Positions 1 to 29,367 of a stretch of 64,000 nucleotides of DNA are shown in pieces. Position 1 is the first letter of the stretch. The number at the start of each line of letters is the position of its first letter. The notes beneath the pieces are model-generated. The model was not told where the DNA came from and made no database searches. It worked only from the letters and a program-made list of their open reading frames with translations. The translations under genes and the position numbers were made by a program. Location: contig OZ249436.1 in NCBI GenBank assembly GCA_965235115.1, positions 28,026,001 through 28,090,000 of the forward strand, read 5' to 3'. Source of the DNA: Laetmonice hystrix (lineage: Eukaryota).

Positions 1-2319
1 CTATGGACCATTTCTGTATATTTACAAAAGCTTGGTAATTTACCCAACATACACAGGGATGGTATAGCAGCCTATATAATATACCAATCAAACATTGTTT
101 ACAAATGGGCGATGCCTTAAACCAATCACCTCACATGGTATCTACATAACCCAGCTCTCTGAAAAGTCAATGCAAGCCTGAATCAGATACAAATAGTTTA
201 ACCCTCAAGGACTTCCAGTGAAAGTCTCTCGCAGGTGGATTTAAATTGCCAGGCTCTCCTGCTGCTCATTAGACCTGCCCTTCGCTACTCTATACTGTAC
301 AACGCCCTTTACACTTCCGTATAAACTTGGCTGAGGACTTTTTTCAATTAGCGAGATAGGGCCGTGACGTGAGAACACATTATTTCCGCTTGGTGGCCGT
401 TGGAAACAGTCTCAGCGGACCCATGTCTCAGCGGACGAAGACCTAGCAATGACACGGCCCTGTGATTGGGGCGCCTGAGATCTTGGCACCAACTTTACAC
501 GTACACCTTCTGGCGTTACTCCAAGTGCATCGTGCCTGTGAATCGATGCCTGAACCCTTTGTTCTCCCCGGCGCCGGTTGTAAATGTTTGTTTAATTACC
601 TGATGGGCCAGGATCATTAAAGCATCCATCAGTCTAACCCTTCTGTAGTATCTATTAGAGAATTCAGCAACTAAGGAGTGCTGTTCTTGTGAAGTGCCAA
701 AAATGAGCTGAAGTAACAATAAGAGGAAACAATTTTGTTTTTTAACTAATCACTGTTAATTATCGATTCCCTCCTTTCCGTTCGATTTATTTTTTTTAAG
801 TAAAAGGTCTACAACGGAAATCAGTAGGAAATGCTTTAAGTGAGAAGAACTCTTCACTTGATAAATTTAAGAGGGTGGCCGCTTAGCCTGAGTAACATCG
901 CGACTTGGTGAATTCGATAGTATGGATTCTGTTCTCATGCCAAGGAAGCTACCAACTGTGAACACTATTGAAAGAGAAGAACACAAGTTTCGAAGTTAGG
1001 AAACTTCCTGCTTGATTAACATTAAATTTTATAGTCTGTGTGTCGATCTATGGCCCGTATTTACGGAATTGAATTTTTTACTTTCGTATTTCCATTACGA
1101 ATTTCTTTACTTCTCCATAGGAAAGTCTAAAGCAAAACACTTCTAAAATTTTACCCCCCCCCCCCCCCCCCGCCTTCATTTTATCGGAGCAGCTTGTGTT
1201 GCAGGTTACAAGGATAGGCTGACACCAAGTCCGAAAGTCTTCTTTGAATCCATCGCTGACCCAAAGATGTCTTTCTGGAAGCCTCTTGATTGGCTGAGAG
1301 ACTCCCAAAGACTTTGGAATGACTTCTTTCTTTATATGCACACAGACTCGAGCATGGTCGCTGCTTACATCGTTGGTTTCACGACAACTGTCATCTCTCA
1401 CCTTCATGTCTAAAAGGAGAGATGAAAAGCCAATCATTAATCAATGAATTGTGCTGAGGCCTTAGAAGAGTAAAAATAAAAGACAGCACCGGGTCAATAA
1501 GAAATCGTAGCCACCTAAAGCAGTCGCTTGGTACGAAATGACCTACAATCTTTTGCGTGATTCTCCAAGAGAAATTAGAATAACAGTACTACGTTGCAGA
1601 TATGAACTTCTTGGTGAATGGACCTCATAAGAAAGAATATTTTGTAGCCGAATGGGTTCAGGCACGCACCCTTCACTATCTTGTCAGATGTCTATAATAT
1701 AAATCGTATTCCATCTCGTCGTCGCAAAATGATGAAACTTTTCTTGTAATCCAAAGGTCGCATAAAGTCAATATCAATGGTGTTTTATTATTCTGTCTTT
1801 CAATTTCCGGGGTGTCGTTAACTTGCCCATGAACAACACATAATGTTCACTTAGTGTTAGGTATCCACAGAGAGTCTTGTGTTGATTTAACGTCGAGTCA
1901 TAATGAGAAGGTTATGTTCCTAGTTCTCGTTCGCCCATTCATCTGTAACCTTTCTACTTTGACCTTTCAGGTGTGATTTGGACGCCTGAAGGATGTACCT
2001 GTCAGTAAAGACGCTGTTGATGGTATACATGGGTCTATTCGTTACCACTATATGTACAGCATCTAAAGCCAGTAAGTACTTTGATATAATGCTGTCTATA
2101 TGAGTACATCGTCTAAAGCGAATAGGTATAACCTTTTGTGTAATATATCGATTATGTGTACAAGCAGGAGCTAGGCGTGCCGGTTTAAAGGAAGGACCCC
2201 GAAAAAAGGGAACGATTCAAGATATTAATACTATTCAGTTGACTCTATATTATAGAGTCAACTACCGTAACTGAACGGCACCGAATAAAAATGAGATGTA
2301 GCATCGAGACCATTCGGAA

Positions 2320-4851: not shown

Positions 4852-7800
4852 GTATTAGTATATTATAGGCAACCACTTCACCACTGATTGCTTACAACAC
4901 CTTTTGTATTCCCAGTAGGTATAGGGTGGAGCTGTGTTACCTCGTCTGTGCGTAATAAAGTGTTATACAAAAGGATAATACAAACATATATAACGGAATG
5001 AGGGTCCTTCACGACGCGAAAGTATGGAACGAGATGTCTGGCGCATGAATACGGCACGACACCGAAGATGGAGTGCCGTATTCATGCGCCAGGCATCGTG
5101 TTCCATACTTTCCCGCCGTGTAGGAGCCGAATCCCGTTAAGTGTTTATTATATGCGCTTGGATTATTTCTAATTTAAGGAAAACTACTTTAAGGAAAGGC
5201 TTCCAGCACCGTAAGTTGGAAATTCGGGAGGTCATCCAGTTCAAGCCCTATTTGAAACATCAGAAAGTTTTATATATCGTTCTAGTAATAATAGTGTGAG
5301 GAGATTAATTAATATTTATGTAAACCTGAATGTCATAACAAATCAAGCCTTATTTCATCGTTATAAGTAGCATTATTTTAGAGTTCTGCTGCTCAAAAAG
5401 TTTCTACTGGCCGGGTATAGGGAGCGTAAGTCTCGCGACCGAAAACGAGGTTCGATCTAACTAGGTCAGACCGCTGGCGACATGCAACTTCCGTTACGTC
5501 ACAATTCCCCACTGGTTTAACATAGGGCGAGCGTACACCTCTCCAACCATCGGCCTTTCTTTTGACAATTAAATATTTCTTAAGTATGAAGTGTATTTTT
5601 TCTAACATAAGAGATGTTGGTTCTGATGTATAGCACGTTTGATAACAAGAAGAACAGTAATTGTGGAGTTATCAGTTAGAACGTTTTTTCAAACGCCTAC
5701 CAATGCTAAATGAACGGAACCGGAATTTGGCTGGCGCCAGTTTGGGCCTCCAAACCGCATTTCTCGTCGATTGTGACGTGACATACTTACGCTCCCTATA
5801 GGGACGACGTGCAGTAGCCTACAGCCAAGGATTATGGGAGAGTACTGTATTCATAACTATCAGGAGTCTCACTAAAAGAAACACATCTCTGGAGACCTGA
5901 CGCCGTGGGCAATATTTCTGGGTACTACTTTCATATATAGGTCGTCGCGACATATTTTGGGGATAAGCGCTGCGAGGTAGAATGAACACAAAATTTGATG
6001 TTTTTAAAATACGTTTTTGATGGCTTCAAATGGTCGTACGAAAAAGAATAATTGAATCTAGTTATTAAATTTCATACTGTACCAGAGCCAAATATGTATA
6101 GTTTCTTTTGCAATAATTTCCATGTGAATTGATTAATTATTCCTACCGCGGGCGCGTTTTGAAGCACCTGAGGTCAGAAAAACTAAGCTTTTACTCCCCG
6201 ACTTACGCTAGTAAAGCCAGGAATCCATGTGTACGTAGTGTGGTCGTGATGGTAATGCGTACTGCGTAGTGCCTAATGCGTATTCATCAAAATCAATGAA
6301 AACAAGTTGTAGTGATTCCATGTCTGCGAAATGCGTGTTTTCATTGTTTTGATTACGCAATACGCACTACGGACACATGTATTCCTGGCTTTACGGTACA
6401 CATCTGTAATTTATAATACATGTTCCTGGACTTCTGTAGGGCCCCATAGTTAACGTCGCGTCACCCCGAAACGTGTACAATCAAATCAGTCCGTGTGGAA
6501 CACGCATTCCATACGGACCACTATATGGCACCCCCCCCCCCCTGAATGGCACTGGCAGATAGAATGCGCATATAATAACAATGAAGACTTGGCGTATTAT
6601 GAGGCGTTGATTCGCCATTCTGTCGCTCCCTTATACCCTAGTCACACTAGAGGCGGAATGAACCGGAATGCCGTCGGAATGAAAGTTCTTTGTACATTCC
6701 TGGATATTCGAAGTGAATTCTAAATATTCTGACTGCATTCTGAGTGCATTCCAAATATTCGGGCCCATTCTTGTTGGCGGCCCGAATGTTTTGCTCATGC
6801 TCAAAACTTTCGAGGTGCATTCGAAGTGGAGAAATATCGAACGGCATTCGAAGTGTATTCTAAATGCACTCTGACTGCATTCTAAATATTCTTACGGCAT
6901 TCCAACAGCATTCAAAACATTCTGATCGCATTCGAGGAAAAATCGAAAAGGCAAGCCACTTCAAATCCTGCCAGAATGTCCCGAATGAGCCTCGAATGAG
7001 TCGGAATGCACCTCGAATGCATCTCGATTGCTGCCGGAATCTATACTCGGGACATTCTAAGTACATTCGAAGTACATTCCAAGTATTTCAACTGCATTCT
7101 GTTTGAATTCTTGGACGTTCGAACCATATTCGGCTGCCATTCTGGGAGCGTTCTGACTGCATTCGAGGTGAATTCGTACAGCATTCGAGGCACTTTCCAA
7201 CTAGACTTCGGGCGGTATTTGGACAGCAATCGAACCGCACTCGTACGGCATTCGAGGTGCATTCTAAATATTCTGACTGCATTCTAACAACATTCTAAAT
7301 ATTCCTACTGTGTTACAACTACATTCAAACTGCATTCGAGAGCTAATACACCCAGAATGTGCAAGAATCATTCGAGGCGGGTTCGAAGCGCATTCTAAGT
7401 ATTCGAACGGCATTCTTACAAAGCTGTAAGAATTTTGGTCAATTTGAAATTTGCTGCTGAATGTGGCGCAAATTTTGAGTATTCTTCATTTCGGCTGGTT
7501 CTGCTTGATTCCTGCTGATTCCGAATAAGTGTGACGGGGGTATAAGAAACGGGTGTAAAAGGGTACTGATGAAAATAGGGAGCACTGTCTTCAATTGAAT
7601 TAAACTTGATGAGTGCGGGAGATGTGTTTGCATCCAGAAGTCACAGAAATGGTGAAGCATAAAAGATGACACGCTTGTACCAAGTGAGCACCAGTGGGCA
7701 GAATGCAACTAAATGGACCTGATTAGCGTTGAATGTGGTTTACATATTGTGGTTTACATACTTTTCTGGTCTCACTGAGGTAACACAGTTTCAACGATGC

Positions 7801-10800
7801 CCATTTAGGATAATATAAACCCGTTGGAAGAACATTAACTTGTCTTATCGTAAATATGTTAATGATTTATGTCAATTTAACTGAATGCCATTTAAGTTGA
7901 AATATCGTCCTTTCATGTTGTCCCGGAACATGTCGTTCATGTAGTCACTGTGGGAAACAGCGTTTTCTCCACATGCCTGCTCGATATATCTCCTTCGTAT
8001 TCAATCATGATAACGCCAAACAAAAGGCAAAAAAATCCGTGTGGCATGGCTGTCAATTTGCTCGTTGATCCTCTGTGCCGTGTCTCATCATAGCAATACT
8101 CATATTGACGGGAAGCTGAAGATAAAACTGTCATATCTTCATCGTGTCAATAGTTTATCTTCCATCCATACAAAACTTCTCGTTAACATCAGCCTGTATT
8201 TATTAATACCAATCTGGGTAAAACGGACAGTTGTAGGCGGCAGTGGGTTTCCATACTGATATCTAATTAGTTCTAATTGCCAATAAGGATGACAGACATG
8301 ATCTTTTACTAATTTCACTTTCCTTGTAACTCACTTTTCTTACTCTACTATGTAAATCGTAGGAGGGAACAGGATGAACCAACAGAAACATCTGCTCAAT
8401 AGAAACCAACAAGGCGGTTCAAGGGGCCGTACCATTGGTATTGTCGATGGTAAGACATCTTTCACCCAGCCAATCATTCCATCGCTCGTGCATTCTCGAT
8501 GAACATTATAAATACTTCTACCTTATAGCATTCTTACCGGTTTTGTCCTTGTATTCATTAACGTTTTGAAGAACAAACAAAAATCACATTTTCTCGAGTC
8601 TTAAATTTTGATAGTTTTATTAAACTTTTATTCCATGCATGGTTAATGAATTGCCATGGTATATACAAAAGTACAAGTTAACATATTTTCACATAATAGT
8701 TGTTTAACCTATACATAAAGCCACGTGTGAGGAACCTAGCATGCCTGCATGACTTTACTATCTATTCAAGAATCTATTTTAAGGTCAATTTCTCTTATAT
8801 CCATGGTATGGGTAATCTTCTCTTCCCACTACCCAACGTATACGTAATGGTCTGTTGTTTTTCTTTATTAACACATATTATCCGAACATTATCTATCTGT
8901 GTTCAATTTTATTTTAACTCGCTAACTATTGTAGAGTGCTGCGTCCCAGACGAGCAGAGATTGATGGCCCAACTACTTGTCCACTACGAACCCGCGTCCC
9001 GCCCCGTTTTTAATGCTTCTCATGTTGTTACGGTCAAATTCGGTTTGACCCTGACCCAAATATCCGACATGGTAAGTTGCACAGAAAATGCTGATGACGT
9101 CACGTAGGTGTCCACCAATAGGATCAGGTCGCACGGTGGCATGTGGCACGAGCCTGCCAGTGTTACAGCAGCCGGTGGGGTGCGTTTCTTCCAGCACGCT
9201 TACAGTCTGCACACTACCGAGCTTCATTTCTTTCCCAGTTGTTTATTTGTATTTTATTTCCTCACCTGTCTCTGTCTTGCTGTTACTGCATGAATATAAG
9301 TTTGCATGAAGTCGTCCAAAAACGATGTCGTTTGGGGATGGCCGCTTAGCCCTAGAAAATGCACCTTTTGGTGGAGGTAGGCAACCATATGGAAATATGG
9401 AAAAACGCATTTATAATCTGTTACTAAAGTGCTGAACCCACCAAGGCGATTCCCCTTGCGACGGCCATGCGATTTTTGATTTAATGGTGGAATTTCACTC
9501 TGAAATTTTTCCTGGCTGGCCTTCTCTGTTTCAGGAAATGGGTTCCATCCTTTAATCTCAAAAGTACAGTAAAATAAAAGGGTGCTGTCAAAATCGCATG
9601 GGCGCCGCAAGGGGAATCGCCTTGGTGGGTTCAGCACATAATGGTAACTTATTGACCGAGTGTGAGAAGTTCCCTTTTCATGTAAATGTATATAGAGTGC
9701 TTTATCCGTCCGAAGTTTTATGTGCCTACGAAATCGTTTTGGTCTCCAAAAATACAGTTCAACCTACATCGTCCAGGGCTAGAGCGGCCATCTTCAAAGC
9801 ACCATCACATACTGGCTATACAAGCGTAACCATTCGTTTTGTCTGTACGGCGCCTCTTGTTGTTTGTAGCTCACCTGATTAACAGTGGCGGCAACAAAAA
9901 GGTGAAACTGCCAGACGAACAGCGGCTCCTGAGGAACATACTCTACAATTATGATACTGCCGCCCGACCCGTGTACAATGCCTCCCATACTGTCACTGTT
10001 CAGTTTGGTTTAACCCTGACGCAAATAGCAGATATGGTATGTAGAATGCTTCTTTTGTTATGTTGACCTTTGTTTCTTTTCCTCCAGCCAACTTTCTATG
10101 AACGCCCCGCTCTCTATGTGTCTTCTCAGATAGACCGACAACGTGTATTGTTCAGTCCGTGCACTCTACAGCATTCCGGTATCTGCAACATAGGTTTATA
10201 ATGTTTGTTCGTTCTGTCAACTGCCTTTGAAAAATTTCTGTTTTTTTCAGTATTGAAACTTCTTATTTTTTGAAAACTGCGTCGATCTCTTTTTAGTCAA
10301 TCAGCCAGACATAACCGGCTTTGTCTGCATATGGTCATGCTGATCTAATAACAAAATCTGATCTGCATTTTTTACAAGTAATTTGGAAATGCCTCTTTTC
10401 CTACTACTTTGTAATTAGTTATTGCTGTATTTATCTATATCATTAGTAAATATACCATTTTCTGTAGGCCCTATAGTCACAAGTGTTAACATACTTTTCT
10501 TTTAAAGCGTTCTGTTAATAATACTTGAATTTCGACTCATTCAAATATTAGGCCTGTACTTAGACTATGTACCTGATAATTTATGCGTTTCAAACAGTCT
10601 GCACAATGCTTCACTGCAGACCCTATCGGGACCACCCACTACCCCTGCTGAAGTCTCCCTACTTGCGGTTTTATTCAACCATTTATTTGCATATAATTAT
10701 GTATTAGGTTTATTAGTAGTGTATTTACTTTTTCATTTATTCAAAAAGTAGTAAGTACCTTTGAATCTCTGCATGTGAACGTTTAGGACAGACCGCTGCA

Positions 10801-13800
10801 AATCTGCCCTCGGTTTGTCTTCCCATCATCCACGGTACGGGTTTTCTTGCGATTCATTCCTTAAATGCTAAACCAGCAGAATCGTAAGAAAATACCACTT
10901 TAAAAAAAGGTCGCAAAGTGGATGGTGGGCTTTTAGGCTGACATGGTGCTCTGTTGTCACGAATGCATTGCTGAATACGACGCAGGACTGTAACGGTAGG
11001 CCATGAAACACCACCCAGATTACAGCCACAGGTCGTGAGGTGATCACTGTAATCAACCTTTTGTTGTAGGAGTGGAACATGGCTTCTAGTAGTTTTGTAT
11101 CGCCTTAGTGTCTGTAAGTAATTTCGCGATGGGTTTTCGTGAAATTATCCCGTAGAGTTGTGATAAGACGAAAGCTGTAGGTGGCTGAGGTGATGGTGTA
11201 ACGCTTTACTGCTAACATAGATATCAACGAAAAAAGTCAATATCACAGGTTTTGATAATAATCTTTCATTTCTAATTTAAACTGTATTATGAGGTTTTTT
11301 TAAATTCGAGGTAATATCTCATATATTACAAACACGACAATATGAGATAATACATTGATAATACGTTGAATTACGTGATTATTAATGAATGGTTTATTTT
11401 CTTTTTGTCACGCAGGATGAGGTTAATCAAGTATTGACGACAAACGTATGGTTAGAACAGGTACGTTTTGTTGTGCGAACAGGAGGTGTTTTTTAACTTT
11501 ATTTTTATGTTTTTTATTTTTTTTAAATTATCTTGATCTGATTGTTATCTTTATCCATATTACGTCCTATATCGTCATCATCGCCAGTATCCCTTTGATC
11601 ATTGACCAGCATTATTGTTTATGTACGCATAATTATTAACGGAATTATTTATGGCCAGGTTGATGGAGACGTCTCCCAACTTTCCCGTAGAAATTTCTAT
11701 CTCTTCTGAATGATTCTATACTTAGCCTTCCACACTAGATTTCTGCGAGCGACGGTTGAAACATACTCTACCGCTTTTAGTATCAAATCTACGCTGATTT
11801 ATTGAAATAATATCATTGTTGAACAATAATGTTTTTAAAAGATTCATTATCGATCATTAGGGACCTTTGTCAGAATGTTCCCTGTTCCACGTCAGCTCAG
11901 GGAAGGAATCGTGATGTATTATACTGCACAGATCAATCATTTCCGATTAAGCATTCCACAGCTCTGATGGCCAGTGCAAAAACCGTGAATACTATGTTAA
12001 GCAACATCGCGTGTATAAATATATCCCTCCTAATGGCTAATTGTTAATGTGTTATACGTGTCAGTCTCCCAACATCCAGCCATTGGTGTCCCGACTGATA
12101 AATGTTCTTTACCGTGATTGTACTCGGTTCACAGAACAGTCCAAATTGCTGTAACTCCAGACTTTGATCTGTCAGACATTGAAAGTGCTCTCTGGTGATA
12201 CTGCATAAGAAACCTTTGTGAGTACGATATGATGGCACAATGAAACTAGAAACTTTAAGATGGCGTCCCAGTGTTATTAAGAAAAACTTGGCAATGTAAT
12301 CTAATGTGCGTTAGTCTATGGTCCGACTGTCGTTGAAATTGTTCCTTCTCGTTTCAAATTGCTTACTGTGCTTGGAGAAAAAATTGCACTTTGTGAGCAA
12401 TATTAAAGCAATGTTTTAAAGTGTATCCGACAAGGAATCAGTGACGATTTGATATTTCATAGACGATGTTCCCTCTTCCCATTTTAATTGTACAGTTAAA
12501 TAAAGCAATTTATTAAGTTAGGATCGGAAGAAAATTGAAGTCTTGCTAATTGCATCGAAGACGTAATTCCGTTTATATTCCATGGGATTGATAAAACTCG
12601 GTTCCCATCCCACGCATACATAAGTATTCATACGTCGCGAATAAGGATTAGCAGCTGTTCTGTTTGGCCTAAGATAAGAGAAGTTGCCATAATATTAATG
12701 AAGTCTCACCGGAAGCTTTGTATTTTGTATAGCTGAGGTAAATGTACAATCATAGTATATGGTTGTCGCGTGTGGTTGAACAATTACAGTACAGTGTGTT
12801 CCAAAAATATCGACGAGAGTCATAGGCCTGTCAAGATGTCAGATTAGGGAAAAGACCATTTTTAATGTGGTTCTACGTGGTTCATTTCGCCACATAATTA
12901 TCACATTTAGAATGGGAATTCCTCAACACAGCCCAGCAGCTTCAGATCCGGTTTTGCGCTTGAAGAATCCGTATGATCCTTTACGTTTCACACTAAAGGT
13001 CATCTTCAGGGCGTAGCCTTACAAGACACAAAGACCTTGGCAGTATGCATCTTCGTGATAATACGCATGCCACGTTTCGTTTTGATCGAGGCTACTTTGA
13101 TGAGATTGTAATTCATAAGGCTGGCGGAGTGGCGACTAACGTTTTTTTCTCTGAAGCGTTCGTGTAAATATTTGTACGCGTGCGTGTCGCCTTCAACCTT
13201 TTCCTTCAGTCTCTTTCACTCCACAATTCTGTGTGCGGCGTGGGGGTGGGGGGGGGGGGGTGCGTGTGTGTGTCTGTTAACGTGTCCGAGTTTCAGGTTT
13301 CTAGCTAGGACTACGTTTTTGGTGAGGTCTTCAGCTGTGTCAGTACGCCCCATCTGACCAAGCTCTGGTAGTCATTACTGAGTTGCTCCTCCGTTGGCCA
13401 AGATATTTTCCTGCGTTGTCGATCTATAAAATGTGTTTCAAGTGTGGTAATCGATAAAAGGTGCAACTGGTGTGGATTTTTTTCAGGAATGGGTTGATGA
13501 ACGGTTGAAATGGGACCCGAAGGACTATAATGGTCTTCATATGTTGCGGATACCTTGCCAGCGAATATGGTTGCCTGATATTGTGTTATACAACAGGTGA
13601 GTGTCAGTGGGCCTCGTAGAATTTGACAAAGCTACAAACATAGTAGGACCTTATGCTCATATCAATGCGTACAGTCTTACCTATAACGTCATAATGTGTA
13701 CATTTCAACTTCTCCGGAACAGAACCTGTGTGGGCTACGTAAACTTGTATAAAATAGTGCATATTTTATTCCTCTATTTTACACCTGATCCTTTTAATTT

Positions 13801-16800
13801 CGAGTATCACCCTTTATCTCTCCACCAGCGCCGACGACTTCACAGAAGGCTTCATGCAGAGTAAAGCAATGGTTTCTCACGAGGGTAACGTTTTCTGGCC
13901 ACCGCCCGCAAAGCTGAGGAGTTCCTGTAAGATAGACATAACCTATTTCCCGTTTGACGACCAAAAGTGCAAGATGAAGTTCGGTTCGTGGACGTACGAC
14001 GGTTTTCAAGTTGACGTAACGAACAGGTCGGCGAGGGTCGACCTACAAAACTACGTGTACAGCGGCGAGTGGGAACTACTGGGAATCAAAGTACTCCGAA
14101 ACGAGGTGTTCTACCCTTGCTGTGCTGAACCATACCCGGATGTTACGTTCACTATCGTCATGCGCAGACGGACGTTGTATTACCTCTTCAACATCATCTT
14201 TCCGTGTCTTTGGCTGACCATCTTGAGTCTGCTCGGGTTCTGGCTGCCACCTGACTCGGGAGAAAAGATTACTCTTGGCATTACCGTCTTGTTGGCCTTT
14301 TCCGTCTTCATGCTTTTAATAGCGGAGAGCATGCCTGCCACTTCGGAGTTCGTGCCGCTTATAGGTGAGTTCCCTTGATGGTGATGTATATTGCTTTCAA
14401 TAGGCAGAAAATACTATTAACTGCCGTGGGCTTTTGGAGCGCCTGTCAACGCAGATGGAAAAGAAAGAAGCTCATTGTATTAGGAATATGACAAATCCGT
14501 ACGAATAATGAATTTTGTTTCCATGTTGCCGATAGAATACACATTGAAATGGCATTCAGCCTTCAATTTAAAAAAAAACCAAGCCACCTTAATGTGATTC
14601 GTGTAATGCAGTTGGAATAGTTTATTGCGTACGTTGGGTAAATATTTCATTTGCACAGATATAATGTTGCGGTTTCAGTGATTTGTGAGGTACTCGATTA
14701 TAGTGTTCCATTAAACTCCCTTACCTACTAGGTTGGATCCCATACGGCCTGTCCGTGTGTTCTTGACAAAATCGCTCTCTAATGTACATCACCGTCTTTG
14801 ATCAAATCCATCACACGTTCCTCTTCAAAAGGATGTCCACAGATTTTAGCAGCGAATCCTTGCGTTGCTGCAATATGTCCCTGGCGACAGAGGCACTACC
14901 CTGAGAGTGGGACAATAGCTCGGTGGCCAACATGACAGAACCGGTGTGTTGTAGAGACTTGATTTGTATCTCCTGGGCCCACCCTCTCTCGAGGGTTAGA
15001 AGCGCTTGGTGTAAGGGCCGTGGGGGCAAGCTGGGACACGGTGTTGTGCGTGCTAGTGGCCACTCGCCGTAAAATACATTTTACGGACACTTCGGGTATC
15101 ACGAACAATGACCGTGCTTTATGGTCGATATTGAAACAGACACTCAATTCTATAGCGGTCTGTTCCCCGTTCAACGTTAAGTTATCTCAACGTTAGGAAG
15201 CGGCTGGTATTGGCCGTCTCATTGATTGGCCGTCGCTCATGCCTAGACTATGGGATGGCCACTGCCAGGGGGCACTTGTACGTACAGGTGTAACTGAGAC
15301 CGACTAGAGGTTTTTGAAGGCCTACCTGTTGAACTCAATGGTGCTAGATGAGAACATTTACAATATGGAACCACCCATCGGATCAAATTAAAAACTACCC
15401 CCTGGGTAACGGAGGTAAAATAGGTCCCTTCACTGGATTAAAGAGGTTCATCTATACACTCGCTGACTGAAATACTGTCGACAGGGCGTAAAACTTCCAA
15501 TTGACTCACTCACTTACTCAAACCAAAAACTTCCCAAAAACGTTCATGTTGAAAGCGTCATCGTCTCAACATGAATATTTATTCTGGTCCCATTTTTAAA
15601 GGCACACTTCCGATGACTTGAAACTGTTCCCGCGGAATTTTAATGAAATGTTGCGGCTTTGTAATTGGATTGACTAGAGCATTATTCTTTTTCTACTCGG
15701 TATGAATAATCAGACATATTTCTTTAATACGAATAGTAGCAATGTCAAATACTTCAGTGGATGGGCCTACATAAATAATAACTCGCGTTGTAGAGATTTT
15801 GAGAAAAGTAAGAAACATTGGTGGAGAAGCTCTCCTGTCGAAAGACACACCACAATTTTTGCAACCGTGCATAAGCGATTCTTTTTCGAAGTCGCTTTAG
15901 GAGGCCTACATAGTTTCAACATAAAACAGGAAAATGACGTCGTCATAGCCGTGCACCTTGGTCTGTGAATTGCTGAATTCTGACACGAATTTACGTAGCT
16001 TGCATATGTCCCAGGGTGGTCAGTAGTTTACATGAACAAATTTGTGCCATCCGACTTAAATCTAATTCGCAAGCAGTGAGTCGAAATCTATTCGATCAAA
16101 CGCATAGCTAATGAGGTTCTAGGTCAGGGCACTCGCGTCTCCTCTGAGTGACAGCGCATCGAGTTGCAAATGGGCACGACTGAAGCAAATTCAAAGGCCT
16201 AACCCCACTCGCCGATCCACCCAAGCATGCTAAAGGCTCAAGGGGTCACCAAGCCCCCGTCCCGGTTGTCTGCTCACTAAAACCAGGTGAGGCCCGGACC
16301 GCCAATCGTCTTCGGCTCACCGTTTCAGGTCAAAACAAAGCTGCCGCGCACGCGCGCGGTATATGTCTAGGTATCACCCCAGTAAACACACGCCACGTTC
16401 CTTCAGTGGGCGTGTCCTTTGGACAAGGAGCTGTCAACAATTTTCCGAATCTTCTGGAAATTGGCGGCTATACGTCTCTACGGTAGTGCCAATAGTTTTT
16501 AATGTGTCTTCACTGTCATTCTAGAAACACTCAATATTCCTGGGAACCCCCAGTTTTGTTGATGCAGACAAAGAGAGCCCCTTTAATCGTTGACAGCCTG
16601 TTTCTGATTATGGTAGTGCTAGATCTTTCCACTGGTGTCCTTGATCAACTTATTTCCCGGACATGAAACTTCTGCAACTGATAACAATTCATTATTACGC
16701 AAATTTGTCAGCTTTGTTTTTCTAGTGATTTTGCCAATTAGTTGAGGCGCCTGCATTAATCAGTTTCCGAGGTGAACAATGCGCAGTTGCCCCCTGTCCC

Positions 16801-19800: not shown

Positions 19801-20705
19801 AGTAGACATGTTTTATGTTGAAGTCCTCCAAAGGTTACCAAGTTCAAATTTAATGATCTGTTCCAGTGACGTTCTGTTTTGTATGCCACTTTCAGTTATC
19901 TTTGCAGTCAGTAAATTGTGGGATCATAACATGAGCTGATTATTGGCGAATAAAAAGGTTGCTACCCCTTGATTTCATAACCACGCCTGCCAATAAGCCG
20001 GAACTGTTCGGACTGCGAGGGAGATACCAAACCCTTAAAGATTGTAGTTTCGATAGTACTAACATCTCACACAATGTTCCCAATATTTGCTTATTGACAA
20101 TATTTCCATGTTGACTACATGTTTCTTCTTTGTTTATATCACTCACAGGAATCTACCTGACCGTGACAATGGCTATGACGTCACTATCGATTGTATTGAC
20201 AGTGTTCGTCCTACAGCTACATCACGTGGGTCCAAACACCAAGGCGGTCCCAACGTGGATCAGGAAGGTTGTCATAGGCGTGATCGCACGTGCTCTCTGT
20301 ATGACGTCACACCTGCAGGGTTATTACAGTTATCGCGAGACGGGCACAAAGAGGGACGAAATGTGTCTAACGTCGTTTGTGGACAACTTAGAAGTCAAGG
20401 AAAGCAATAATTGTAACGGCAGACTCAATCAAAACCAGATGCGTATCAGTCATGAACGCTCCGAGAGTTTGCGAGACAGGAGCGTGAATTACGACAAGAT
20501 CTCGCGACACCTGAAGATTCTCGTGTCGAAACATGACGGTGAAGATGAATATCAAGACATAATCAATGAATGGAGATTAGTTGCTCACATTATGGACAGA
20601 TTTCTCTTCTGGCTATTTTTGATAGGGTCTTTCCTATCTTCCATCACCATTCTAGTATTCAAGCCAATGATGAAACCTACAGACATGTTAGAGCAAGAGT
20701 ATTGA
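4776..20705 (+). CDS. CHRNA9/10-like: Nicotinic acetylcholine receptor alpha subunit, alpha9/alpha10-like, cation-selective (spliced gene, ~515 aa with exon A or ~525 aa with exon B)
   Basis: Exons: 4776-4851 (tentative), 8363-8449 (tentative), 8935-9071 OR 9870-10036, 11416-11460, 13487-13596, 13829-14364, 20149-20705. All GT-AG and frame-consistent. Cys-loop CKIDITYFPFDDQKC, loop A YNSAD, loop B FGSWTYDG, loop C FYPCCAEPY (vicinal Cys = alpha subunit), loop D VWLEQ, M2 GEKITLGITVLLAFSVFMLL, M4 preceded by EWRLVAHIMDRFLFW. Confidence 0.93.
4975..5152. repeat. Foldback (palindromic) dispersed repeat
   Basis: Arms ~5010-5058 and ~5074-5120 are near reverse complements (GGCGCATGAATACGGCAC / GTGCCGTATTCATGCGCC); the left arm recurs inverted at ~31456-31513. 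Confidence 0.8.
6212..6393. mobile_element. MITE, PIF/Harbinger-like
   Basis: ~29-bp TIR TAAAGCCAGGAATCCATGTGTACGTAGTG / CACTACGGACACATGTATTCCTGGCTTTA with TAA/TTA ends. Confidence 0.75.
6631..7545. mobile_element. Non-autonomous DNA transposon with internal CATTCGA/GAATG motif repeats
   Basis: TIR TTATACCCTAGTCACACT / AGTGTGACGGGGGTATAA; interior dominated by GCATTCGA/CATTCTAA motifs that generate the overlapping spurious ORFs. Confidence 0.75.
8363..8449 (+). CDS. Tentative symmetric (phase 1-1) nAChR exon, GGNRMNQQKHLLNRNQQGGSRGRTIGIVD
   Basis: Pyrimidine-rich tract then CGTAG acceptor, 87-nt open frame, strong donor ATG|GTAAGA; in frame with both duplicated exons. No family motif. Confidence 0.55.
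8935..9071 (+). CDS. nAChR alternative exon A (ECCVPDEQRLMAQLLVHYEPASRPVFNASHVVTVKFGLTLTQISDM)
   Basis: CTAAC branch-point-like motif at 8922-8926, TTGTAG acceptor, GTAAGT donor at 9072; typical nAChR N-terminal helix, RPV motif and beta1. Confidence 0.9.
9429..9637. repeat. Inverted repeat, ~50-bp arms (9429-9479 / 9588-9637), between nAChR exons A and B
   Basis: GTGCTGAACCCACCAAGGCGATTCCCCTTGCG...ATGCGATTTTTGA versus TCAAAATCGCAT...CGCAAGGGGAATCGCCTTGGTGGGTTCAGCAC; 32 bp perfect, then two mismatches and one indel. Confidence 0.93.
9870..10036 (+). CDS. nAChR alternative exon B (AHLINSGGNKKVKLPDEQRLLRNILYNYDTAARPVYNASHTVTVQFGLTLTQIADM)
   Basis: TTGTTTGTAG acceptor, GTATGT donor at 10037; paralogous to 8935-9071 with the same phases (1 to 0). 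Confidence 0.9.
11416..11460 (+). CDS. nAChR 45-nt exon DEVNQVLTTNVWLEQ (loop D)
   Basis: CGCAG acceptor, GTACGT donor; 45-nt size and sequence typical of nAChR genes. Confidence 0.93.
13487..13596 (+). CDS. nAChR 110-nt exon EWVDERLKWDPKDYNGLHMLRIPCQRIWLPDIVLYN (loop A)
   Basis: TTTCAG acceptor, GTGAGT donor, WLPDIVLYN motif. Confidence 0.95.
13829..14364 (+). CDS. nAChR exon: Cys-loop, loops B and C, M1, M2
   Basis: ORF 13854-14378; CCACCAG acceptor, GTGAGT donor at 14365. Confidence 0.97.
17098..17356 (+). mobile_element. tRNA-derived SINE with V-SINE-type core, full length
   Basis: Box A TGGCCGAGTGG, box B GGTTCGATTCC, core GGTTTCCTCCGGGTACTCCGGTTTCCTCC, perfect 14-bp TSD CACCCACCTCATCC (17084-17097 / 17357-17370). 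Confidence 0.9.
18132..18443. mobile_element. Tc1/mariner-type MITE
   Basis: TA flanks; ~90-bp imperfect TIRs CAGAGTGTCCCAACAAAATGTCCAGGCCAAAC... / ...GTTTGGCCTGGACATTTTTGGAGAGACACCCTG. Confidence 0.85.
19577..19705. repeat. 13-bp minisatellite (GATACCGTCCACY), ~9-10 copies
   Basis: Direct reading of tandem units. Confidence 0.9.
20149..20705 (+). CDS. nAChR last coding exon: M3, cytoplasmic loop, M4, stop
   Basis: CTCACAG acceptor; GIYLTVTMAMTSLSIVLTVFVLQLHH ... EWRLVAHIMDRFLFWLF ... TGA at 20703-20705. Confidence 0.96.
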
Positions 20706-26600: not shown

Positions 26601-29367
26601 AGTTGAGCTGTATAGCCATCAGAACTTAGATATTTGTCAGTCTTTTCATTTATTTATGGGCTTTTTTGAATATCGTACCATACTTTTATTATTGCTTTGG
26701 ATGAAATTTTCTAATTACAACCATTTTATTTAATGGGAAGAATTCCTGTCCAATTATACTACTATAATACTAAAGTATAAAAAGAGAGATATATTTCAGG
26801 TATAGCACCTGTTGAGGTAGGTTAGCACGACTGCCCGTCAGGCGCTCCAGACATTGTTTCCACGCAAGGTTTATGTAGTATTCCGCATTTAGAGTGACTT
26901 TCAGGCCTAAAAAATTGTCCAGAGAGTACCTGAGTTCTTTATGGTTACGTCTTTATTTATTGGAGTTTTTATTTATTTATTATCCACATGCAGCAGGAAC
27001 GCCCGCTGCATATACGGCCCGCATTCAGAATAGACATGGTGAGAATGAGTGGCGTTCCCAGTCCAGACGCTCGGGACAACAGGATCGTCCCTCCATCTTC
27101 ATAAAAAGATAATACCAACAGTAATCGGATACATACGTCTTGAAGGAAGAAAAGCGACATTAATGATTGAGTCTGAATGTCAGCCCCCTTTAAAAAAGAC
27201 ACTTCTCTTTTCTTCTGCGAATTGCATTCTCTTTGCCTGGGGAATACTAATTTGCACTGGGATCTGTTGAGACCCTTTGTCCCGCGTTGCACACCAATTA
27301 AACCAGAAAAATAACCCATTCGAAAAGACAGACACTTATTGCTTTCTCAGCTTCTGTACAGCTGTGACTGAAAATCATCATCACCGTTATCATAGACATC
27401 ATCATCAAGATTTGATTTAAACGTTTTTTCTAACAAGTACAGTGGGGTTTACAGTATATTATTTTACAGGTTTAGTGGACATTACACGCAGTTGTTACTG
27501 ATGGTCAATAGGTGAATAGTTACACGGCTCTTTCCAGAATGCCGCACATTTCTTATACAGAACTAGATATAGATAAATGTTTATAGGCCATAGCGATTCT
27601 GTTGTTGATATCACGACAGAGGCAATCGCTATCAAGAGGAAGCCAAAGAAGCCACGGTGTATAGTTAGTAGTGTTTGTCGGCCCAGATGTGGCTGTGTTG
27701 GTGATTTCTTCTTCTTCTCCCTCTTCTTCCTCTTCTTCCTTTTTTTATAAAAATTTCAGCTCGTACTGGAAATAATGGATGATGATGTAGCACTACCGAT
27801 GAGAGAATGGTCAAATGGTCTCTAAAAATAAACATTACGCAAATTCCTATTGATAAATAGATTTTTAAATAGGCACGTGTCCGAATAAATGTTCTAAATG
27901 TAATGAATGGGTAAAGATATGCATCGAATATGATCATCGTGTTTTAACTTCTGCTTAAATTTACTGCAAACACGTTTGTCGAATCATGTAATTACAAAAT
28001 TTGATGTTCAATTCAAAACAACTGCATTGGCCATGATACTGCCACTTATTTAGATCTCGACCTTCTGACCGAAACAAAGGTGGGAGATTTTTGTTTCAAC
28101 CGCCGGCGGTAATTGTAGAGAACGACAACGCTGCCACTACCGAGGCCGACGTGGTTTAGTAAGTTTAGGATGGTTAATTATAGGCTAACTATGGCAGGGC
28201 CTACCGCCCGCGACTACGAGCGCCCCCTAGGATGTCGTGACGTCACTTCAGTGACGGTTCGCTCGGCGTGCGTCAAGTACTCCCTGTGGACTATTTGGCA
28301 TACTGTACAATAACAGGAATTCTCACGTTCGAACGGCTGTGCTCTTCTTTCTGCTTCGTCCATGTTCCCAGAGCAGACAAGCCCTGAGGCTGACGTGACG
28401 GGCGTTTCAAATTCCACCGAGTTTTGTCTTACTGTTTCTGTAAACTTCAAGGCAGCGCGTGAGACGAAAGGTCGTCCTTTGTTGGCCTCTTTATCATCGT
28501 CCATCTTGGAGTCCATTTTCTGTATCAGGACTTGAAAGTGGACATTCGGTAAGGCTAAGCAAACTTACCCAGAAATATCGCGGATATAGATCTATACCGC
28601 CACTAGGATTTCTTTATTTCACCCGCATATAGATACCATTCAATCAGATGTGTATGAAAGTCTAATCTATTCAGAATAACAGATCGAATTATTTGGTATA
28701 TAGACATAATTTTGTTCAATTTGCGCTTTTTTCCATTATTGTTGGAAATTAGTCTGAGATTCTAATTTAGAATACATAAAGCGCTTTGTGTGCGTATAGT
28801 TGAGTAGAGTTGGAGCTGAGAAACATCTAATTCACATAACCAGTGTGCAGTTTCGATGTCTTGAGACACGCGGCAAATATTGGAATTTTGGAAAAAAATT
28901 AATATTGGAAAGTCTACCCACCTCCTCCATCAAGGACAGTAAAGAGGTTCAGCATTCATGACTTTAAAAAAACGATACGCAGCAGCTGTTGTGATCTAAT
29001 ATCGTCGATACGCAGCAGCTGTTGTGATCTAATATCGTTGATCACCTTGTTTCAGCCAGCAGATCATTATTGTATAAAAAGAAACGAATTCAATTTTATT
29101 TTCTCATAATCCTAGGTTTCCCCGTAAAAATGATTAGTTGAGAAAATGAATTTGGCGTGTAGACATATGTCAGTCTTGTCACCTAATATAGCTTCCCATC
29201 AAATAAATCAAATAAATAAACTAAATCACGAAAAGAAATCCAAGTAGGCCTAAATTAGTGTTCTATATTCGAGGTGAAAATCAGAATGTCTATAATGGAT
29301 GATGATGTAGCACTACCGATGAGAGAATGGTCACATGGTCTCTAAAAATAAACATTACGCAAATTCC

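Follow-up and report, generated by a model that had tools for sequence, protein, structure and literature searches.

We have identified two tandem copies of an N-terminal exon in a nicotinic acetylcholine receptor (nAChR) alpha subunit gene of the worm Laetmonice hystrix. Exon A (8935..9071) and exon B (9870..10036) lie on the forward strand of a 64-kb stretch of contig OZ249436.1 that was analysed as a whole (hereafter the window, in whose numbering coordinates are given). The two are probably working versions of one exon encoding the N-terminal helix, loop 1 and strand beta1, chosen either-or behind a common pair of upstream exons, S and U. Judged from its sequence, the pair is in all likelihood real, old and functional, and either-or splicing from a common upstream exon would be the best reading of the choice in the clade of this worm.

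Re-checking of the coordinates confirmed A and B as intact paralogous exons, each with its own AG acceptor and GT donor and each running from phase 1 to phase 0. Exon A (137 nt) encodes a Cys-Cys pair, helix alpha1, loop 1 and beta1, and corresponds to PF02931 positions 1-40; exon B (167 nt) encodes a basic linker followed by helix alpha1, loop 1 and beta1. As the sequence-only reading had claimed, the two share 29 of 42 core residues, and 17 of these 29 are specified by different codons. Identity at the three codon positions is 29, 38 and 17 of 42. The purifying selection that had been proposed is supported by a dN/dS-type comparison of A with B, which gave pS 0.78 against pN 0.19 (Fisher p 6e-9). 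The introns flanking the two copies show no similarity to each other beyond the exon end and donor.

An assembly artefact was ruled out, since U, A and B sit together on a single 3344-nt contig of run X1, which spans 7554-9419 and 9644-11102 at a depth of 55, similar to that of adjoining single-copy bins; the second copy is thus present in short-read contigs as well. Runs X1-X3 are contigs of one sample, possibly the assembly's own source, and lend no independent biological support; their contigs have no splice joints among the matches listed. Between A and B, at 9420..9643 (no strand assigned), lies a polymorphic, high-copy repeat element of 224 nt with 48-nt inverted ends (arms 9429-9476 and 9590-9637), which is missing from X1 contig 1, shows very high depth in that bin and is outside the splicing mechanism. 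A remnant of a nearby paralog was likewise ruled out: within the genome A and B are mutual best matches (66%, where paralogs reach 58-60%), and elsewhere they match this gene's first and second copies.

A correction concerns the exon ending at 8449, which is not the start of the gene. That exon, U (8363..8449, +, 87 nt), is a linker exon rich in Gly, Asn, Arg and Gln, symmetric in phase (1-1) and possibly optional, and the signal peptide is instead on exon S (1971..2071, +). Exon S, absent from the sequence-only reading, was found by a signal-exon scan; it has a strong acceptor, a short 5' UTR, an ATG at 1993 and a GTAAGT donor, and ends in phase 1. The common exons follow B on the same strand: exon 3 (11416..11460, 45 nt; beta2 and loop D), exon 4 (13487..13596, 110 nt; to loop A), exon 5 (13829..14364; Cys-loop, loops B and C, M1 and M2) and the last coding exon (20149..20705; M3, loop, M4 and stop). 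The 64-kb window contains no convincing extra copies of exons 3-6, with one weak match at 28664. With either A or B alone the frame stays open through to the stop codon at 20703-20705, and the predicted products are 516 residues for S-U-A and 526 for S-U-B (487 or 497 without U). Both exons have lengths of 2 modulo 3. Joining A to B breaks the frame, as had been stated, with a stop after 103 residues and 849 nt ahead of the last junction, and omission of both exons also leads to an early stop, so that a protein can hold one copy at most.

The product carries domains PF02931 and PF02932 (Pfam) and matches alpha7 at E 2.5e-61. Aligned motifs in the predicted protein include the Cys-loop and vicinal cysteines in loop C, the aromatic box of loops A, B, C and D is complete, and the cation filter reads GEK. 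By domains and motifs the gene would encode an nAChR alpha subunit, with related subunits being dopamine-gated. Over exon 5, identity reaches 90% with one gene in nemerteans, molluscs, annelids and brachiopods, and is 73-81% with flatworm and rotifer proteins. Tail identity is 58-76% to 20 AChR-G members versus 39-55% to 10 paralogs. In a quick tree of the common part, the AChR-G clade that includes Lymnaea and Aplysia G received an SH-aLRT of 92, and the window sequence was sister to the annelid Dimorphilus within this group with support of 97, a placement that makes an annelid source probable. As far as sequence goes, the gene belongs to the spiralian AChR-G orthology group, in which no ecdysozoan proteins were found among those compared. 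The name 'alpha10-like' is an automatic database label, and the tree was built without vertebrate alpha9/10; protostome alpha9-like subunits are termed unclear in PMC8634148. The same genome has four close paralogs, 67-68% identical in exon 5, at C1:27889504-27902729 and 55527383-55653097; one is about 135 kb upstream and three are clustered, with a single helix-exon match each.

A scan of metagenome contigs returned 57 loci, and the counterparts sought in related genomes were found there: four of the 57 contigs (L032, L033, L034 and L050) hold the tandem in A-then-B order. On L031, A is present and the contig ends 0.9 kb beyond it. The gap between the copies is 798 nt in the window, 1117 in L032, 359 in L033, 319 in L034 and 521 in L050. 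Window exon A is identical to its counterparts in L031-L034 at 37-38 of 42 residues, and window exon B to the second copies of L032, L033, L034 and L050 at 33-35 of 42; in nine of nine comparisons a copy was nearer its positional counterpart than the other window exon. Against the first copies (L031-L034, L050) exon A gave pS 0.78-0.91 and pN 0.10-0.20, and against the second copies (L032-L034, L050) exon B gave pS 0.80-1.12 and pN 0.13 (p < 1e-9 in both cases). Synonymous change is thus saturated and non-synonymous change low, which indicates purifying selection on each exon separately. The relatives keep the 137-nt length of A and the position of its acceptor, which is YAG at the same phase-1 position in all four Cys-Cys relatives (L031-L034), with CTAAC 24-39 nt upstream. 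The features ascribed to the two N-termini are also kept. The Cys pair brought by A is CC in 4/4 close relatives and CxxC, preceded by a longer extension, in a fifth (L050); the basic linker brought by B is present across phyla; and the sequon Asn is retained in 17/17 first copies and 16/17 second copies.

These comparisons bear on the possibility that one copy, although formerly functional, is no longer productively spliced and is silent or acts as a decay switch only. Loss of a single copy is known in other lineages, and selection tests average over long branches and are blind to recent loss. However, both copies keep their frames, splice sites and the residues typical of their class. With synonymous sites saturated, A departs from its nearest relatives at just 4-5 of 42 residues, and P0249 and P0250, close relatives of B, differ from it at 2-4 of 42. 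We consider a silent copy very improbable and retain two working alternatives. In P0249 the sequence matching window positions 9860-9869 and 10037-10060 is apparently kept, by translation only; it is possible that these intron segments flanking B are splice-control elements.

Upstream of A, counterparts of U lie 0.4-1.1 kb 5' of A in L031, L033 and L034; window U matches that of L033 at E 0.001, and those of L033 and L034 match L031. An S-like exon of 27 codons, with the same phase and donor, precedes U by 2.3 and 2.0 kb in L033 and L034, respectively. These two S-like exons are 82% alike, and the likeness of window S to them is one of position and eye, under the tblastn and blastn thresholds. 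In the stretch 5' of A, only S and U are well conserved between L033 and L034, which extend just 2.4-2.6 kb upstream of S. In L033, exon 4 of the same gene occurs twice (8650-8757 and 10232-10339), the donor of the first copy apparently being GC; in the window it is single. Eighteen of the 21 contigs that reach exon 3 have a single helix exon (12 A-like, 6 mixed or B-like), many of them near-copies from related hosts. Paralogs with a single helix exon fall into two types within one set of animal-derived contigs, the first type comprising L042, L044, L051, L059-L062, L065, L069, L072, L076 and L078 and the second L045, L064, L074, L077, L080 and L083. Possibly, gene duplication was followed here by a parting of the two forms, each type now representing one of them on a gene of its own.

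Two N-terminal forms are also found in other phyla. Among 20 ortholog clusters inspected by N-terminus, 11 have a pair of forms whose sequences diverge as far as the helix exon's end (Lineus, Octopus, Patella, Biomphalaria, Haliotis, Lingula, Owenia, Mytilus, Bradybaena, Crassostrea and one further cephalopod). Identical tails were confirmed in eight of them (Lineus, Octopus, Patella, Biomphalaria, Haliotis, Lingula, Owenia and Bradybaena), and the ortholog isoform pairs are identical starting at the first residue of exon 3. The other nine clusters have one form (Mya, Mercenaria, Dreissena, scallops, P0027, Dimorphilus, Schistosoma and two rotifer clusters); with these and the contigs carrying a single helix exon, the A/B pair is not universal. 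Gene models of Macrostomum and Cichlidogyrus have two tandem helix exons, and the trematode and rotifer proteins examined have one. Expression of the two forms in other species is seen from intron-free public contigs of one cephalopod cluster, which encode full-length A (P0184, P0187, P0190) and full-length B (P0011, P0182, P0186), and from RefSeq or GenBank records that give both for the eight genera with matching tails. Among AChR-G records, Aplysia P0024 is the short form and Lymnaea P0025 the long form. The Dimorphilus models P0013 and P0168 differ by a linker insert at the place of U. Annotated isoforms of P0015 (Mya) and P0166 (Mercenaria) omit the 45-nt exon 3 (loop D) in frame.

The signal peptides differ between the forms in all ten clusters in which each form has one, including the annelid Owenia and the brachiopod Lingula. 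In read-through proteins of oyster, Biomphalaria, Haliotis, mussel, a nemertean and Littorina-like snails, the short-form signal peptide is contiguous with A, and the long-form signal peptide is not contiguous with exon B. Because their frames run on across the donor site, these proteins mirror unspliced DNA. Since its signal peptide is contiguous with it, A in molluscs and the nemertean is a first exon within the intron that is removed from the B transcript. In P0244, P0267 and P0268 the cores are 19-22 residues apart, B's extension included, a spacing that, inferred from protein, leaves too little intron for A-to-B splicing; read-through frames are biased towards short A-B gaps. Gene models in which the two are fused, from Octopus vulgaris, Nucella and Biomphalaria, likewise have the A-then-B order.

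In the worm, the preferred reading begins with an old tandem duplication that would have produced A and B, with the order A-then-B retained. The transcript would begin upstream and contribute one signal peptide (S) and the linker (U), after which A or B would be picked and joined to the common exon 3. Messages with both exons or neither stop early and would presumably be cleared by nonsense-mediated decay, for which the stop of the double-exon message, 849 nt ahead of the final junction, is a standard signal. The sequence-only reading had called the exclusion obligatory, which stands for the protein and does not for splicing, as the 798-nt gap permits A-to-B joining and no blocking pairing was seen. 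A steric block, with the donor too near the next acceptor, is absent from the window and the four relatives, in which gaps of 319-1117 nt leave A-to-B splicing sterically free. No conserved pairing structure was found; the inverted repeats in the window, L033 and L034 have no common pattern, and the only strong one there is the polymorphic 9420-9643 element. Exclusion is therefore certain for the protein only.

Because none of the ten clusters with two signal peptides shares one between its forms, a separate start for A is conceivable in this worm as well. Exon A would then be transcribed from its own promoter, either with a first exon that begins near the ATG at 8808 or 8847 and leads directly into A or with a separate signal exon, and the choice would be made at transcription, as it is in molluscs. 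The frame is open into A over 8700..8934 (+; 78 codons, both ATGs included), with a hydrophobic stretch 5' of A. Locally, 1.8% of intron positions have a comparable open run, and 0.9% have an open run with a Met and a hydrophobic window in 43 codons. The window's CTAAC motif is just 10 nt before the AG of A (TTAAC is at 18), and at distances of 46 and 59 kb upstream of the window there are two weak candidates for a signal exon. The contiguity of the form-A signal peptide with A in molluscs and the nemertean, and the different signal peptides of all annotated pairs, point the same way. Yet the upstream frame, which in the window and L033 stays open over about 79 and 70 codons, closes after 33, 9, 26 and 17 codons in L031, L032, L034 and L050, respectively; that of L033 is unlike the window's, and no relative's reads as a signal peptide. 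The acceptor of A is conserved while this frame is not. Comparison of L033 with L034 revealed, in the span from S to B, no further signal exon that is conserved, and the lone candidate in L032 is stop-broken, by eye, in the closely related L031. We therefore regard an own promoter for A in this worm as unlikely and the open frame at 8700-8934 as probably intron, and continue to favor a splicing choice behind S and U.

The age of the pair was approached with a tree of 54 cores over 42 columns. The A/B label changes four times on this tree versus 12.4 times in shuffles (0/500 shuffles as low), and no species' own two copies are sisters. Window A groups with the first copies of octopus and Lineus (98/94), and window B is nearest the Lingula X2 form, with 37/42 residues identical. 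A single old duplication would be the simplest, rather than a demonstrated, reading. The annelid, mollusc, brachiopod and nemertean split lies more than 500 million years back. To the joint proposition that one duplication predates this split, and perhaps flatworms, that the two N-termini were kept and that the switch changed in kind, we give somewhat less than an even chance. Molluscs would then use promoter choice with a near-zero A-to-B gap, one annelid clade would use splice choice backed by decay, and another lineage would have separate single-exon genes.

Alternatively, the pairs across phyla could stem from several independent duplications, or from reshuffling by gene conversion. The alignment has 42 columns only, four label changes remain, and a clean one-change A/B split occurred in no bootstrap tree of the 54 cores. 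Gastropod second copies are aberrant in the core tree, and for six of the 16 other pairs with two comparable cores, the six being all gastropod or gastropod-like, summed identities to window A and B favor swapped labels. Five pairs (Lineus, Lingula, Owenia, Patella and Crassostrea) were labelled by resemblance and not by genomic order. In addition, the helix exon duplicates readily, being doubled in an unrelated alpha7-like gene of the same genome and in paralogs P0286 and P0320. Against separate origins stand the low number of label changes relative to shuffles, own copies that are never sisters, and the recurrence of the same gene, the same order and the same contrast of a short with a basic-linker form wherever order is visible. 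We judge separate origins or reshuffling rather unlikely, and keep the single old duplication as the simpler reading.

The alpha7-like nAChR gene is at C18:23687100-23692100 on the minus strand (L027, L028). Its two helix exons, 23692059-23691943 and 23690911-23690783, have AG/GT ends; there is one exon 3, from 23689161, while exon 4 stands in four tandem copies of 110 nt, only about 37-50 nt apart and also with AG/GT. Up to eight exon combinations are predicted, and the gaps between exon 4 copies are short enough for steric exclusion. P0286 and P0320 are other nAChR-like read-through proteins with two tandem helix exons, so duplication of the helix exon has happened at least twice in the family.

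The N-terminal helix and the extension preceding it affect assembly and surface expression in alpha7, alpha4/beta4 and GABA receptors (PMC4786271, which cites Castillo 2009 and Criado 2010 for the role of the helix in assembly). The A and B subunits of the worm gene would have all agonist-binding loops and the pore in common. With core numbering taken from the match to alpha7 residues 1-42, they differ at 13 of 42 core positions, nine of these at alpha7 7-18 (helix end and loop 1), and no difference touches a binding loop; ahead of the helix, A has the Cys pair and B the basic stretch. Most likely, we infer, the two forms serve to adjust assembly, the choice of partner or delivery to the surface according to cell type, rather than agonist binding.

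RDL, GluCl and the glycine receptor differ from the present gene in being anion channels with an unchanged signal peptide. Their alternative exons cover beta1 and are not known to include the N-terminal helix, and glycine receptor alpha2A and alpha2B derive from a duplicated exon 3. The likeness lies in alternative exons near the N-terminus of a Cys-loop subunit, with residues near loop D: insect RDL exons 3a-3c and GluCl exons 3a-3c are described as alternative duplicates (PMC2064938), and alpha2A/alpha2B are named in PMC8634148. Closer parallels are exons 3a/3b and 8a/8b/8c of insect nAChR alpha6 and exons 4/4' of alpha4 (PMC2064938, PMC1919356), which are tandem alternatives used one at a time, old and subject to lineage-specific losses, those of alpha6 being about 300 million years old by the same accounts. 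The insect exons cover loop D, the Cys-loop's neighbourhood and M2, whereas here the helix/beta1 exon of another gene is concerned, in several phyla. Molluscs and nemerteans are further unlike insect alpha4 and alpha6 in that the first copy serves there as a first exon and supplies a signal peptide of its own.

In the main texts of the open-access literature no description of two AChR-G forms or of such a helix/beta1 exon pair was found, although the Lymnaea and Aplysia cloning papers may mention variants; the insect alpha4 and alpha6 cases named in the sequence-only reading were confirmed. Molluscan AChR-G (Lymnaea, Aplysia) is of the same orthology group, and the name 'type G' occurs in the Biomphalaria cluster. 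AChR-G is treated for expression only in the accessible text of PMC3874043; the main text of PMC6896357 does not mention splicing, isoform, promoter or signal peptide, nor does that of PMC13174522 mention isoforms, splicing or exons. Automatic 'alpha-10-like isoform X1/X2' records already contain both N-termini. The forms are thus implicit in automatic annotation, and what differs from the insect cases is the exon, the depth of conservation and the promoter-versus-splice switch. DopC dopamine-gated cation channels form a neighbouring branch of alpha9/10-related invertebrate subunits (bioRxiv 10.1101/2025.04.02.646353). As presented there, DopC1 has arthropod and nematode orthologs, unlike the group of the present gene, which is without ecdysozoan proteins. 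The second position of loop C is Tyr in this gene and Phe in most neighbouring paralogs. The gene may be identical with DopC2, the gene ids of the preprint being unmatched to the proteins used here. That preprint, on octopus channels, kept the longest isoform for its tree and tested 41 channels.

Surveys that keep the longest isoform, or cloning of a single form, overlook half of this gene. Among the family's choices between alternative exons the pair is a candidate for one of the oldest, and for a case in which promoters take the decision in some phyla and splicing takes it in another. A and B would constitute a natural pair of nAChR subunits, in several phyla, with identical binding loops and pore and a different assembly-linked helix region, so that the role of this region may be tested with sequences vetted by evolution.
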